From IMG/VR virus record IMGVR_UViG_2585427736_000001: a stretch of 10,309 nt of DNA. The stretch is one strand, 5' to 3'. The position numbers and the translations under genes were made by a program. Of this stretch, positions 2,696-5,011 are shown one piece after another. The notes beneath the pieces were generated by a model. It was not told the origin of the DNA. It ran no database searches and saw only the letters and a program-made list of their open reading frames with translations. Source of the DNA: a virus. Lineage: Duplodnaviria; Heunggongvirae; Uroviricota; Caudoviricetes. The first letter of the stretch is position 1. Each line of letters starts with the position of its first letter.

Positions 2696-3159
2696 TGAAG
2701 TTTGTTGCGCCAGAACAGGCACCGGAACAGGCGGAAATCATCAGGAATACGCCGTTCTGGCCTGATGTGGACCTGTCGGAGTTTCGCAGTGTGATGCGCA
2801 CTGACGGCACGGTGACGCAGCCGCGTTTAAAGCAGGTTGCGCTGTCGGCAATTTCGGAGGTCAACGCAGAGCTGTATGAGTTTCGCAGACGCCAGCAGAT
2901 GCTGGGGTATGCCTCGCTGGCAGAAGTCCCGGCGGAACAACTGGACGGCAAAAGCGAGCGCATTCAGCACTATTTCAACGCGGTTTACTGCTGGGCACGC
3001 GCCATGCTCAACGAACGTTACCAGGACTATGACGCCACGGCATCCGGTGTGAAGCGGGGCGAGGAACTGGCAGAAGCCAGCGGTGATTTGTGGCGTGACG
3101 CCCGCTGGGCCATCTGCCGGGTACAGGATGCGCCGCACTGCACAGTGGAGCTTATCTGA
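2696..3159 (+). CDS. L: head completion/stabilization protein (P2 gpL family)
   Basis: Start chosen at ATG 2696 because of strong RBS (tttcAGGAGaaagcagcATG); the ORF track extends in frame to GTG 2632, which remains an alternative start. Motifs NTPFWPDVD, NAELYEF, LWRDARWAICRVQ fit gpL; stop overlaps X start (ATGA-type). Confidence 0.83.
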
Positions 3160-3362
3160 TGAAAGTGCGTGCGCATCAGTATGACACGGTGGACGCACTT
3201 TGCTGGCGTCATTACGGGCGCACGCAGGGTGTCACGGAGCAGGTACTGAAGGCAAATCCGGGGCTTGCCGAATTTGGCCCTTTTTTACCTCACGGGCTGC
3301 AGGTGGATCTGCCGGACATTCCGACCACCACCACCGTGCAGACCGTCCAGCTATGGGACTGA
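3159..3362 (+). CDS. X: tail protein X (P2 gpX family, LysM-like small protein)
   Basis: 67-aa ORF, same length as P2 gpX; motif YGRTQGVTEQVLKANPGLAE...LPHG...LPD and C-terminal QLWD resemble gpX; synteny. Confidence 0.85.
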   Translation: MKVRAHQYDTVDALCWRHYGRTQGVTEQVLKANPGLAEFGPFLPHGLQVDLPDIPTTTTVQTVQLWD

Positions 3363-3365
3363 ATT

Positions 3366-3581
3366 ATGACGCTTGAGCGAATCAGCGCCTTTATCACGTA
3401 TTGCATCGCCGTTGTGCTGGCCTGGCTGGGCGATTTGTCCATCAAGGATGCCTCAACGCTGGGTGGCCTGATGATTGGTGTGCTGATGCTGGCTATCAAC
3501 TGGTACTACAAACACAAAGCCTACCAGCTTCTGCGCGACGGGCAGATCTCGCGGGAGGATTATGAATCCATCAATCGTTAA
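3366..3581 (+). CDS. holin, class II (two predicted TMDs), possibly a pinholin
   Basis: 71-aa protein with two hydrophobic stretches (ISAFITYCIAVVLAWLG and LGGLMIGVLMLAINWYY) and a charged C-terminus; sits at the position of P2 holin Y; 3' end overlaps the endolysin start by 20 nt. Confidence 0.7.
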   Translation: MTLERISAFITYCIAVVLAWLGDLSIKDASTLGGLMIGVLMLAINWYYKHKAYQLLRDGQISREDYESINR

Positions 3582-4074
3582 ACGCTGCCTTGTCGGGGCC
3601 GTGCTGGCTATTGCTGCCACGCTGCCGGGTTTTCAGCAACTTCACACCTCCGTGGAGGGGCTGAAACTGATTGCCGATTACGAAGGCTGTCGTCTGCAGC
3701 CGTATCAGTGCAGCGCGGGTGTCTGGACCGACGGCATTGGTAATACATCTGGCGTCATTCCAGGCAAAACCATTACGGAACGACAGGCAGCGGAAGGGCT
3801 GATCTCCAACGTGCTACGTGTGGAGCGGGCACTGGAAAAGTGTGTGAAGCAACAGCCGCCGCAGAAGGTGTATGACGCTACGGTGTCGTTTGCCTTCAAC
3901 GTGGGGACGGGCAATGCCTGCAGTTCCACGCTGGTGAAATTGCTCAACCAGCGGCGCTGGGCGGATGCGTGCCGACAGTTGCCGCGCTGGGTTTATGTAA
4001 AAGGTGTGTTTAATCAGGGGCTGGATAACCGCCGTGTGCGGGAGATGGCCTGGTGTTTACAGGGAGCAAACTGA
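3562..4074 (+). CDS. SAR endolysin, GH24 (T4/P1-type) lysozyme
   Basis: 170 aa; N-terminal weakly hydrophobic Gly/Ala-rich segment KRCLVGAVLAIAATLPGF (signal-anchor-release type); catalytic motif DYEGCRLQPYQCSAGVWTDGIGNT with Glu41 and Thr56 aligning to T4 lysozyme E11/T26; GGAGG RBS 5 nt upstream of ATG. Confidence 0.85.
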   Translation: MNPSIVKRCLVGAVLAIAATLPGFQQLHTSVEGLKLIADYEGCRLQPYQCSAGVWTDGIGNTSGVIPGKTITERQAAEGLISNVLRVERALEKCVKQQPPQKVYDATVSFAFNVGTGNACSSTLVKLLNQRRWADACRQLPRWVYVKGVFNQGLDNRRVREMAWCLQGAN

Positions 4075-4075
4075 A

Positions 4076-4453
4076 ATGAAAAAGAAATTAATCAGCGGGC
4101 TGTTTCTGATGTTATGGATGGCGCTGTTAATCGCAGCAATGGTGTATCCGCAGGGGATTTTTCCGGTACTGGCAGCGTCCGGCGTTTGGGTAGCCTGTTT
4201 GCTGACATGGGTGGTAATTCCGGTAGCACTGGATGCGTTAATTAAGAATGGCCCGCTCTGGCAGGAGTTGAGGGCATCTTTGCTGAAGGCAATTACCCGA
4301 AAAGAAAACGTATTTATCAGCTGGGTGATGCGATTGCTGATTGTCGTAAGTCTCGCCTGGACGGGGTGGGCCATTACCCTGGTCTTTTATCTGCTGACCG
4401 TTATTGCCTTCTGGATCACACGTAACCAGATGGCGCAACAGGTAGCAGCATGA
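4076..4453 (+). CDS. LysA-like multi-pass inner-membrane protein of the lysis cassette (function uncertain)
   Basis: The track ORF 4004..4453 overlaps the endolysin; I take the first in-frame ATG after the endolysin stop (4076; MKKKLISG...). About 125 aa with four predicted TMDs; occupies the position of P2 lysA; stop overlaps the i-spanin start (ATGA). Confidence 0.55.
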   Translation: MKKKLISGLFLMLWMALLIAAMVYPQGIFPVLAASGVWVACLLTWVVIPVALDALIKNGPLWQELRASLLKAITRKENVFISWVMRLLIVVSLAWTGWAITLVFYLLTVIAFWITRNQMAQQVAA

Positions 4454-4878
4454 ACCGGTTGCTGCTGGTTGTGCTGGCGTTATTACTGGCGGCGCTGGGC
4501 TGGCAGACGTGGCGGCTGGCTGATGCCAGCCAGACCATCAGCACGCAGGCAGACGAACTGCAGAGCAAAAGCCAGGCGCTGGCAAAGAGCAACAGCCAGC
4601 TTATCAGCCTGTCCATTCTGACTGAAACCAATAACCGGGAGCAGGCGCGGCTCTATGCCGAAGCAGAACAGACCAGCGCGCTGCTGAGACAACGACAACA
4701 CCGGATTGAGGAACTGAAACGTGAGAACGAGGATTTACGCCGCTGGGCTGATACTCCTTTGCCTGCTGACATTATCCGGCTGCGGGAACGTCCGACGCTC
4801 ACCGGAGGTGCAGCTTACCGTCAGTGGTTGTCCGCGAGTGACGCCGTGTTGGCTGGATCAGGCAGCGCCGCGCACTAA
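4450..4878 (+). CDS. lysB: i-spanin (Rz-like; P2 LysB equivalent)
   Basis: 142 aa; N-terminal TMD LLLVVLALLLAALGW followed by a charged, Gln/Glu/Arg-rich predicted coiled-coil region (EELKRENEDLRRW); an o-spanin gene overlaps its 3' portion in another frame. Confidence 0.8.
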   Translation: MNRLLLVVLALLLAALGWQTWRLADASQTISTQADELQSKSQALAKSNSQLISLSILTETNNREQARLYAEAEQTSALLRQRQHRIEELKRENEDLRRWADTPLPADIIRLRERPTLTGGAAYRQWLSASDAVLAGSGSAAH

Positions 4879-5011
4879 CGGTGATCTGAACGCGTTGCTG
4901 GATGAAACGGAGGCCGCCTGGGCGGTCTGTGCAGACAAAGTGGACATGATTATTGCGTGTCAGGAGCGAAACAGTGAACAAACCACAATCCCTGCGCCAC
5001 GCCCTCAATAA
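4721..5011 (+). CDS. lysC: o-spanin outer-membrane lipoprotein (Rz1-like; P2 LysC equivalent)
   Basis: GTG-initiated 96-aa ORF in the +1 frame relative to the i-spanin; signal peptide with lipobox LTLSGC; small mature protein with several Cys and a Pro-rich C-terminus; overlapped (not embedded) architecture as in P2 lysB/lysC. Confidence 0.7.
   Translation: MRTRIYAAGLILLCLLTLSGCGNVRRSPEVQLTVSGCPRVTPCWLDQAAPRTNGDLNALLDETEAAWAVCADKVDMIIACQERNSEQTTIPAPRPQ

Follow-up and report, generated by a model that had tools for sequence, protein, structure and literature searches.

Among the described lysis systems, those of phages P1, HP1, 21 and P2 are, with that of the Fels-2 group, closest to the locus analysed here. 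The E-8-D/C-5-T catalytic triad was defined in earlier work (PMC3556154), and the SAR domains of P1 Lyz and R21 are described in a review as uncleaved (PMC6116005). For Haemophilus phage HP1, Hol and Lys were reported experimentally as a pinholin and a SAR endolysin; in its holin family, HP1 Hol alone has been reported to make lethal lesions too small for protein passage (PMC7312051). The lyz gene of the P1-like phage RCS47 gives C13, E42, C44 and C51, and the P1 numbering given in an earlier reading made from the letters of the DNA (the sequence-only reading: Glu42, Cys44, Cys51 and Cys13) was right. R21-type SAR endolysins have Asp in the triad and a SAR domain abutting the catalytic Glu. 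Caging of the Lyz103 type relies on cysteines at -1 and +2 around the catalytic Glu, with Asp in the triad. In P2, the holin Y is a 93-aa protein (PF04550, 143.6 bits; phrog_175), and the endolysin K matches lambda lysozyme 1AM7 (E=5e-44), being lambda-R-like, cytoplasmic and without an N-terminal hydrophobic segment; a different holin and a lambda-R-like endolysin had been correctly attributed to P2 by the sequence-only reading. The classes of SAR endolysin used below were taken from reviews and citing genome papers and from sequences. No experimental work on the endolysin subfamily considered here was found in the literature.

The window (the whole stretch of DNA that was analysed, 10,309 nt) carries a compact set of genes on its plus strand. 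With a probability of roughly 80%, this locus represents the lysis genes of a P2-like prophage (Peduoviridae, Fels-2 type), arranged as X - holin - SAR endolysin - LysA - LysB/LysC, with a mechanism that, by homology, would be P1-Lyz-like. Gene order, family membership, residue correspondence and cysteine co-variation are established here. The cassette is bordered at its 5' end by the gene for the tail/baseplate protein gpX (3159..3362, plus strand; PF05489 Phage_tail_X, 114 bits; 60% identity to P2 X), a gene common to P2. It is followed by the genes for an HP1-family class II (two-TMD) holin of 71 aa, a putative pinholin (3366..3581, plus strand), and for a predicted SAR endolysin of 170 aa, a P1 Lyz-type GH24 lysozyme (3562..4074, plus strand). 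The ORF list of the window places both reading frames exactly where the sequence-only reading had put them; they differ in frame and overlap by 20 nt.

Downstream, a LysA-like membrane protein of 125 aa with four hydrophobic segments (four-TMD) is encoded at 4076..4453, plus strand (phrog_162, E=1.5e-43; NF038378, 121 bits). P2 LysA belongs to the same PHROG, and the protein is probably a lysis-timing regulator or antiholin, as in P2. The last two genes encode the spanins: LysB, an Rz-like inner-membrane spanin (4450..4878, plus strand; TIGR03495 phage_LysB, 173 bits at a cut-off of 92.75; phrog_89), and LysC, an Rz1-like outer-membrane lipoprotein spanin (4721..5011, plus strand; NF038368 P2_Rz1, 122.6 bits; PF23793 LysC). 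The lysC gene starts at a GTG, partly overlaps lysB in a different frame and encodes a protein with the lipobox LSGC and 41% identity to P2 LysC. Antisense ORFs cross the region on the minus strand (3290-3499, 3453-3620, 3608-3748 and 3705-3947) and were taken as incidental. An Rfam search of the window gave no matches, and matches to promoter and terminator patterns in the window were about as frequent as expected from shuffled sequence.

The endolysin was assigned to PF00959 Phage_lysozyme (GH24) with 135.6 bits against a cut-off of 22.3, and its best match among PDB sequences was P1 Lyz, 1XJT (HMMER, E=3e-26). As judged from these scores, its likeness to P1 Lyz is well above chance. The AlphaFold model also found full-length P1 Lyz (1XJT) as its best fold match in the PDB, with a TM score of 0.72; the pLDDT of the model was 70.9 overall and below 50 over residues 41-69. 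The N-terminus reads MNPSIVKR followed by CLVGAVLAIAATLPG, a basic stretch and then a hydrophobic one. The latter, C9-G23 (3586..3630, plus strand), is the predicted SAR segment on the basis of hydropathy, composition and the spacing of Cys in homologues; it contains 47% Gly/Ala/Ser/Thr and has a mean Kyte-Doolittle hydropathy of 2.06. A GH24 lysozyme with a SAR-like N-terminus, as the sequence-only reading had described it, was therefore recovered from the family score, the P1 Lyz alignment and the composition of the segment, SAR behaviour itself being predicted.

The cysteines correspond to those of P1 Lyz. Read directly from the codons, C9 lies at 3586-3588 (tgc), E41 at 3682-3684 (gaa), C43 at 3688-3690 (tgt) and C50 at 3709-3711 (tgc), and the catalytic triad with the caging cysteines, as assigned by alignment to P1 Lyz, comprises E41, C43 (+2), C50 (+9, the D/C position of the triad) and T56 (3682..3729, plus strand). 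In the HMMER alignment to 1XJT and in a MAFFT alignment of homologues, E41/C43/C50/T56 fall on P1 E42/C44/C51/T57; E41 and T56 are invariant in the MAFFT alignment, and the motif EGCRxxPYxCxAGVWTDGIGNT is near-identical between the two proteins. Only five of the seven cysteines of the window endolysin align exactly with cysteines of P1 Lyz. The proposed match of C43 and C50 to the P1 regulatory pair was thus borne out; the R21 sequence has no Cys at either position.

Like the window protein, the endolysins of Fels-2, Yersinia phage 56.17 and Midge, HP1 Lys and P1 Lyz carry an N-terminal Cys in the same MAFFT alignment. Across 30 homologues with 79-98% identity, six of the cysteines never vary, C9 and C50 among them, and C43 is retained in 90% or more. 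When representatives at most 50% identical to each other and with a hydrophobic N-terminus were compared, exactly one N-terminal Cys, 30-32 residues before Glu, was found in 17 of the 20 that carry the Cys pair and in 0 of the 4 without it (Fisher p=0.003). C9 is accordingly predicted to be the activating thiol, the counterpart of P1 C13. Of 68 homologues that lack a hydrophobic N-terminus, 24 have both cysteines of the pair as well, and the pair alone is therefore not diagnostic.

Other assignments were tried and rejected. Caging of the Lyz103 type does not fit, since Lyz103 has C42-E43-G-C45 and Asp at +9, whereas the window endolysin has Y40 at -1, with no Cys there, and C50 at +9. Cysteine-independent regulation of the R21 type was rejected, the window endolysin having the N-terminal, +2 and +9 cysteines, and a lipoprotein signal was rejected because C9 is not preceded by a lipobox.

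The holin has two hydrophobic segments, as the sequence-only reading had stated for a 71-aa two-TMD protein upstream of the endolysin (3366-3581); TMD1 spans residues 6-22, TMD2 approximately 29-47, and the C-terminal tail is charged. Its score was 36.7 bits for PF16080 (HP1 family), above the cut-off of 28.8, and 23.2 bits for PF04971 (S21 family), below the cut-off of 26. It falls into phrog_20 (E=2e-26), a PHROG common to HP1 Hol and the S21 pinholin, and the PGAP name for the same gene in E. coli genomes is 'HP1 family phage holin'. BLASTP against S21 returned no alignment, and the link to that protein is remote, running via phrog_20 alone. Homology to P1 LydD was likewise rejected, as no BLASTP similarity was found.

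The approximate insertion energies of the two holin segments were -0.56 kcal/mol for TMD1 and +1.94 kcal/mol for TMD2, TMD1 being the more hydrophobic. TMD1 of the window holin, at about -0.6 kcal/mol, is strongly hydrophobic and differs from the TMD1 helices of S21 (+6.2) and HP1 Hol (+3.9), which can leave the membrane; its G/A/S/T content is 35%, compared to 65% in S21. No dual-start motif was found in the holin and no second Met lies near its start; a dual start is lacking because a stop codon is located 3 nt upstream of the ATG. The first residues of the Yersinia holin homologue, M-G-L-K-M, look like a dual start. In five diverged Peduoviridae, holins of this family occur together with an endolysin having the same cysteines, and the layout with the holin gene overlapping or just upstream of a SAR-type endolysin gene was observed in HP1, Fels-2, Yersinia phage 56.17 and Midge. 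A search for related loci with the single holin returned only 100%-identical copies, which show how widespread the gene is.

Taken by homology, lysis would proceed as follows. The 170-aa lysozyme would be exported via Sec and remain anchored in the inner membrane through its N-terminal segment, K7 and R8 followed by C9-L21. The tethered enzyme would be inactive because the C43-C50 disulfide occupies C50, the Cys that stands in for the triad Asp. The 71-aa HP1-family holin would build up in the membrane and then collapse the membrane potential, most likely via small holes. After depolarisation the tether of the endolysin would exit the bilayer, and the thiol of C9, until then at the cytoplasmic face, would attack the C43-C50 disulfide to form C9-C43. 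C50 would thereby be freed and the active site would refold, as in P1 Lyz. LysA probably tunes the timing of lysis, and LysB together with LysC would finally break the outer membrane. Export without cleavage, disulfide isomerisation and the size of the holes are the steps that we infer from homologous systems.

Both the N-terminus of the endolysin and the nature of the holin admit other readings. ATG 3562 is favoured as the endolysin start over GTG 3601, since it is preceded by the Shine-Dalgarno sequence GGGAGGA at a spacing of 3 nt, since residues 1-13 (M-N/S-x-S-I-V-K-R-C) are kept as protein in homologues of only 62-63% identity, even where the overlap with the holin gene has been lost, and since the NCBI protein is the long form (171 aa; a cluster of 1753 member sequences), as is the CPT annotation. 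Translation from the internal GTG would remove K7, R8 and C9 and make P1-type regulation impossible. It would agree with the homologues in the Fels-2 RefSeq record and in vB_EcoM-813R9, which are 157-158 aa long and start about 12-13 codons downstream, and with three distant representatives that begin within the hydrophobic stretch. This short start is nevertheless highly improbable: no ribosome site comparable to that of ATG 3562 precedes GTG 3601, the protein would begin inside the hydrophobic core, lacking a positively charged n-region, and both the conservation of residues 1-13 and the long database forms speak against it. With the long form retained, the segment itself could be a normal Sec signal peptide that is cleaved off, like that of Lys44 from phage fOg44, with C9 non-regulatory and a mature lysozyme soluble in the periplasm and restrained by the membrane potential or other means. 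The uninterrupted apolar core comprises 13 residues (C9-L21), typical for an h-region and short for a membrane helix, compared to 18-21 in HP1 Lys, P1 Lyz, Lyz103 and R21; the approximate insertion energy of the best 17-mer is poor (+3.1 kcal/mol), and stable membrane tethering is therefore not assured. C9 lies at the extreme edge of the segment, whereas P1 C13 lies inside its own. A16-I17-A18, read directly from the sequence, fits the -3/-1 rule, and SignalP called a signal peptide at residues 1-22 of HP1 Lys (PMC7312051). On the other side, the Ala-rich SAR domains of P1 Lyz and R21 contain AxA motifs as well, the family has no conserved small-x-small site after the conserved Pro, and the N-terminal Cys keeps its fixed distance from Glu in the pair-bearing homologues and is absent from those without the pair, a constraint that argues against a discarded peptide, which would escape it. 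Cleavage is thus considered improbable, and an uncleaved SAR segment is the preferred reading.

For the holin, the proposal of a pinholin-type partner is plausible, given the HP1-family assignment and the pinholin reported for HP1; the holin is not in the S21 family and its TMD1 is not SAR-like. Since the protein lies outside the S21 family and TMD1 is strongly hydrophobic, an S21-style mechanism is not established. A holin of the conventional large-hole kind, or one forming a stable hairpin of two TMDs, would also serve if the endolysin needs only depolarisation, as with P1 LydA, and the P1 SAR endolysin does work with a canonical holin (PMC6116005, PMC9025707). The lack of BLASTP similarity to S21 and LydD, the PF04971 score under its cut-off, the lack of a dual-start antiholin motif and a TMD1 more hydrophobic than TMD2, the reverse of S21 and HP1 Hol, all agree with that. 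Against it, the protein scores above the cut-off of a family whose type member released no beta-galactosidase and killed cells without lysis, it shares phrog_20 with S21, its family was always found with a SAR-type endolysin in the five diverged phages, and holins beside SAR endolysin genes are usually pinholins (PMC9025707). A non-pinholin is therefore held to be unlikely, though with an appreciable chance of being correct. Somewhat more doubtful is the idea that lysis in the enterobacterial (Fels-2-type) branch would run by a modified P1/HP1 scheme and not by a copy of it, with a possibly labile tether, a reversed holin and timing by LysA. In such a variant, the 13-residue tether with its Cys right after Lys-Arg could be unusually labile or an interfacial anchor, and timing would be set by the four-TMD LysA and not by a dual-start antiholin. 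The holin would combine a stable TMD1 with a weaker TMD2, so that TMD2 would be the helix involved if hole formation includes helix exit at all; another possibility is that the holin is not of the pinholin type.

The cassette is the ordinary lysis module of a very common P2-like prophage group, already annotated and published. Over 2 kb, its DNA shares 96.6-97.3% identity with Klebsiella and E. coli phages already deposited, and 1031 of 5426 complete E. coli genomes carry it. In GenBank, the Fels-2 record already likens the endolysin to P1 Lyz, the KP12 paper likens a near-identical protein to P1 Lyz with a SAR domain (PMC9902359), and the specialist annotation of phage Midge lists a class II holin, a SAR endolysin similar to P1 lysozyme, a LysA antiholin and spanins. 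The novelty implied by the sequence-only reading was consequently overstated, the pair being usual in several Peduoviridae lineages and the likeness to P1 Lyz already on record. The discovery value is little, as the module is among the commonest prophage lysis modules of Enterobacteriaceae. Its practical value lies elsewhere. Annotated starts that drop the first 12-13 codons lose the Lys-Arg-Cys needed by the proposed regulation, and the endolysin should therefore be cloned in its long form. The subfamily would be a convenient and very abundant test case for the minimum length of a SAR segment, and it would tell if a hydrophobic TMD1 is compatible with pinholin behaviour in the HP1 family.

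Compared to P2, the window pair occupies the same genome position as Y/K, between X and lysA, with homologous flanking genes; X, LysA, LysB, LysC, R and S are all homologous to their P2 counterparts. BLASTP of the window holin against P2 Y gave E=1e-3 over 54 aa, and that of the endolysin against P2 K was not significant. At the level of these comparisons, only the holin-endolysin pair differs from P2. This part of the proposed module swap within a P2 backbone stood. As to its direction, P2 could equally be the lineage that swapped, because HP1, Fels-2, the Yersinia phage and Midge represent several Peduoviridae lineages in which the pair is usual.

The window endolysin is like P1 Lyz (PDB 1XJT/1XJU), which is switched on through disulfide isomerisation, in its GH24 fold, the E-8-C-5-T triad, the cysteines at +2 and +9, the single Cys in the N-terminal hydrophobic segment and two aligned C-terminal cysteines (C137 and C165), with 38% identity. 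It differs in an apolar N-terminal core of 13 residues, compared to 20 in P1 Lyz, in an activating Cys 32 residues from Glu at a basic edge (KR-C), compared to 29 residues in P1, and in C94 and C120, which are displaced relative to P1 C91 and C117. An insertion after the FNxG motif in P1 and HP1 is missing from the window endolysin, which also stands in a P2-type cassette with a different holin.

With HP1, the cassette shares the holin Pfam family PF16080, the PHROG, membership in Peduoviridae, the overlap of holin and endolysin genes, the missing dual-start motif and the same three regulatory cysteines. In contrast, sequence identity to HP1 is only 22% for the holin and 34% for the endolysin. 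TMD1 is weak and TMD2 strong in HP1 Hol, the opposite of the window holin, and LysA is missing from the HP1 cassette, which follows the tail tube gene. With phage 21, it shares a 71-aa class II holin beside a GH24 SAR endolysin, a predicted one in the window, and holins that both belong to phrog_20. R21, however, has no regulatory cysteines (no N-terminal, +2 or +9 Cys), whereas the window endolysin has all three, and S21 combines a dual start with a TMD1 of weak hydrophobicity, neither of which is seen in the window holin, the two holins showing no pairwise similarity. The same cassette is found in Fels-2, SopEPhi, Klebsiella phages 4LV2017 and KP12, and Escherichia phages Cartapus, 500465-1 and vB_EcoM-813R9. 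The Fels-2 proteins are 80% (holin) and 91% (endolysin) identical to those of the window, and there is no substantive difference between the window and these Fels-2, Klebsiella and Escherichia phages, the annotated endolysin start varying in some records.

The ORF listing and the reading of the DNA showed that the window carries a block of late genes from a P2-like phage, and the coordinates, lengths and residue numbers of the sequence-only reading were all correct. The gpX gene (3159-3362, 67 aa, PF05489) is followed by the holin gene (3366-3581 (+), 71 aa), whose product scored 36.7 bits against PF16080, the HP1 holin family (cut-off 28.8), and by the endolysin gene (3562-4074 (+), 170 aa, PF00959, 135.6 bits). 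Genes for a LysA-like protein (4076-4453, 125 aa, phrog_162 and NF038378), LysB (4450-4878, 142 aa, TIGR03495) and LysC (4721-5011, 96 aa, NF038368 and PF23793) come next, with tail completion and baseplate genes downstream of the lysis genes. One terminator-like hairpin with a T-run behind it was noted within lysA (4362-4381 (+)), as a pattern match only. The pattern scan returned eight terminator-like sites in the region versus 3.0 ± 1.9 in shuffles, and the annotated attenuator of P2 is located in lysC, further downstream than the lysA hairpin.

Public annotations differ on where the endolysin starts within window 3562-3603. Fels-2 RefSeq (158 aa, locus L005 2730-3206) and vB_EcoM-813R9 (157 aa, locus L003 2002-2475) use an internal start and thereby lose K7, R8 and C9. 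The long form from ATG 3562 is nevertheless better supported: GGGAGGA is located 3 nt 5' of this codon, residues 1-13 are kept at the protein level in aligned homologues merely 62-63% identical, the NCBI 171-aa "lysozyme" (a cluster with 1753 member sequences) begins MNPSIVKRC, and the specialist annotation of phage Midge uses the equivalent long start with a ribosome-binding site marked. The choice matters, as P1-type regulation needs the Lys-Arg-Cys that the short form lacks. Three distant representatives (P0152, P0162, P0168) were seemingly truncated in the same way as the short form.

By sequence, the top solved relative of the endolysin was P1 Lyz (1XJT, E = 3e-26), and the two enzymes are nearly the same over EGCRxxPYxCxAGVWTDGIGNT. 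The P1 Lyz sequence came from RCS47, a P1-like phage, whose lyz product was confirmed to have C13, E42, C44 and C51. Seven endolysins were aligned with MAFFT: those of the window, Fels-2, Yersinia phage vB_YenM_56.17 and Escherichia phage Midge, HP1 Lys, P1 Lyz, and Lyz103 of Erwinia phage Era103. As proposed earlier, E41, C43 and C50 matched E42, C44 and C51 of P1, both here and in the 1XJT alignment. E41, C43 and T56 were invariant in all seven proteins, each of which also carried a single Cys within the N-terminal hydrophobic stretch, while the C50 position held Cys in six of them and Asp in Lyz103. In Lyz103, cysteines occupy -1 and +2 relative to the catalytic Glu, reportedly the "caging" pattern described by Kuty et al. 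(2010), whereas the window endolysin has the +2/+9 pair; R21, the phage 21 endolysin, is without any of these cysteines. Because its Cys positions agree with P1 Lyz and differ from Lyz103 and R21, the window endolysin is, as judged from sequence, of the P1 type and not of the Lyz103 or R21 type. In P1 Lyz, the Cys equivalent to C50 is tied in a disulfide until activation (PMC3556154). C137 and C165 match P1 as well, whereas C94 and C120 are out of register with P1 C91 and C117; both enzymes have seven cysteines in total. The AlphaFold model (mean pLDDT 70.9, low confidence at residues 41-69) had full-length P1 Lyz (1XJT) as its top PDB match, with a TM of 0.72.

The tether, at the N-terminus of the endolysin, carries the basic residues K7 and R8 and is then apolar, with 47% G/A/S/T in C9-G23. 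Its uninterrupted apolar core comprises 13 residues (C9-L21, window 3586-3624) with a conserved Pro at the end, compared with 18-21 residues in HP1 Lys, P1 Lyz, Lyz103 and R21; in several relatives, the next Asp or Glu comes within 14-16 residues. The insertion energy of the best 17-mer, a rough Hessa-scale sum, was +3.1 kcal/mol; P1 Lyz gave -0.2 and R21 gave +0.15. Owing to this short core and the unfavourable rough energy, a cleavable signal peptide is a genuine, if minor, alternative for the N-terminus; however, the relatives share no conserved cleavage motif C-terminal to the Pro, and the main argument for an N-terminus retained in the working protein is the co-variation of its Cys with the +2/+9 pair. 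Homologues from a full HMMER search, as cluster representatives at 50% identity, were classified if they shared under 90% identity with the query and lacked a long N-terminal extension. Among those with a hydrophobic N-terminus, the N-terminal Cys was present in 17 of 20 proteins with the pair versus 0 of 4 without it (Fisher p = 0.003). Where present, it was always single and 30-32 residues upstream of Glu, the spacing being 32 in the window endolysin and 29 in P1. The other three begin partway through the hydrophobic segment, apparently because their starts were miscalled. Both +2/+9 cysteines were also found in 24 of 68 homologues without a hydrophobic N-terminus (e.g., P0181, P0188, P0193 and P0213), so regulation would be indicated by the pair and the tether Cys combined, not by the pair alone. 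This proportion agrees with a published proposal that certain soluble endolysins derive from P1 Lyz-like SAR enzymes (PMC3556154).

The holin has two hydrophobic segments and a charged C-tail of +1 net; among its homologues, the C-tail charge is mostly net positive. Neither the ORF listing nor the DNA reading revealed a dual start at the window gene. The Yersinia homologue (L006) begins M-G-L-K-M, a dual-start-like sequence that the window gene does not have. No pairwise similarity was found to S21, the phage 21 holin, or to the P1 pinholin LydD, and the score against PF04971 (S21 family) was 23.2, below the cut-off of 26. The PF16080 cut-off was also reached by the HP1, Fels-2 and Yersinia holins, with Midge just under (28.0 vs 28.8), and phrog_20 is common to the window holin, HP1 Hol and S21 in PHROGs. 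HP1 Hol kills cells without lysing them, does not release beta-galactosidase and is required for lysis in the natural host; HP1 Lys alone lyses E. coli, phage release is Sec-dependent, and the authors concluded that HP1 uses a pinholin and a SAR endolysin (PMC7312051). The gene adjoining a SAR endolysin gene usually codes for a pinholin (PMC9025707), although canonical holins can also serve SAR endolysins (PMC6116005). Judged by its family, the window holin is probably a pinholin. Its TMD1 (3381-3431, -0.56 kcal/mol) is more hydrophobic than TMD2 (about 3450-3506, +1.94 kcal/mol), whereas the order is reversed in S21 (+6.2 and +0.19 kcal/mol) and HP1 Hol (+3.9 and +0.5 kcal/mol). Since TMD1 is the more hydrophobic helix, its S21-style exit from the membrane is not supported. 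A hydrophobic TMD1 was noted as a pattern of this enterobacterial holin branch.

Overall, the observation of a two-TMD holin with a predicted SAR endolysin was confirmed and its interpretation supported, and the cassette is a known, very common lysis module. The 2-kb cassette shares 96.6-97.3% identity with the Klebsiella phages 4LV2017 and KP12, the Escherichia phages 500465-1 and vB_EcoM-813R9, and many others. The holin of Escherichia phage Cartapus has 100% identity to that of the window, and those of Fels-2, SopEPhi, RE2010 and SEN8 have 80%; relatives are encoded on at least 582 IMG/VR contigs. Among 5426 complete E. coli genomes, the 709-bp module had a match in 1031, nearly all at ≥95% identity, and its two genes carry the labels "HP1 family phage holin" and "lysozyme" there. 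In GenBank, Fels-2 is already described as having a putative holin with two TMDs and an endolysin resembling P1 Lyz. For KP12, a structural resemblance to P1 Lyz that extends to the SAR domain was reported and a pinholin partner sought (PMC9902359), and the Midge genome announcement describes a class II holin, SAR endolysin and spanins (PMC12697156), the GenBank record also naming a LysA-like putative antiholin.

Many 296-aa database proteins (PF00959 and PF28015; P0014, P0001, P0050) are endolysin-LysA fusions with a frameshift near endolysin codon 164 (window 4040-4078). The fused frame is the LysA ORF opened by GTG 4004, which precedes the LysA ATG (window 4004-4453), and 30 contigs, the longest 354 kb, carry one such sequence. 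Holin-endolysin (235 aa) and endolysin-gpD-like (288 aa) fusions were also seen. Sequencing error, prophage decay or genuine variation could explain the endolysin fusions.

Compared with P2, X is 60% identical, R 53%, LysC 41%, S 38% and LysB 33%, and LysA shares one PHROG (phrog_162). In contrast, P2 Y belongs to PF04550/phrog_175 (BLASTP with the window holin, E = 1e-3 over 54 aa), and P2 K belongs to phrog_90 and matches lambda lysozyme 1AM7 (E = 5e-44), its BLASTP comparison with the window endolysin not being significant. Because the flanks match P2 while Y and K fall in other families, just the holin-endolysin pair differs, in agreement with the module swap proposed earlier; the swap may have occurred in either the P2 or the window lineage. 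The combination of an HP1-type holin with a P1-type endolysin is found in HP1, Fels-2, the Yersinia phage and Midge.
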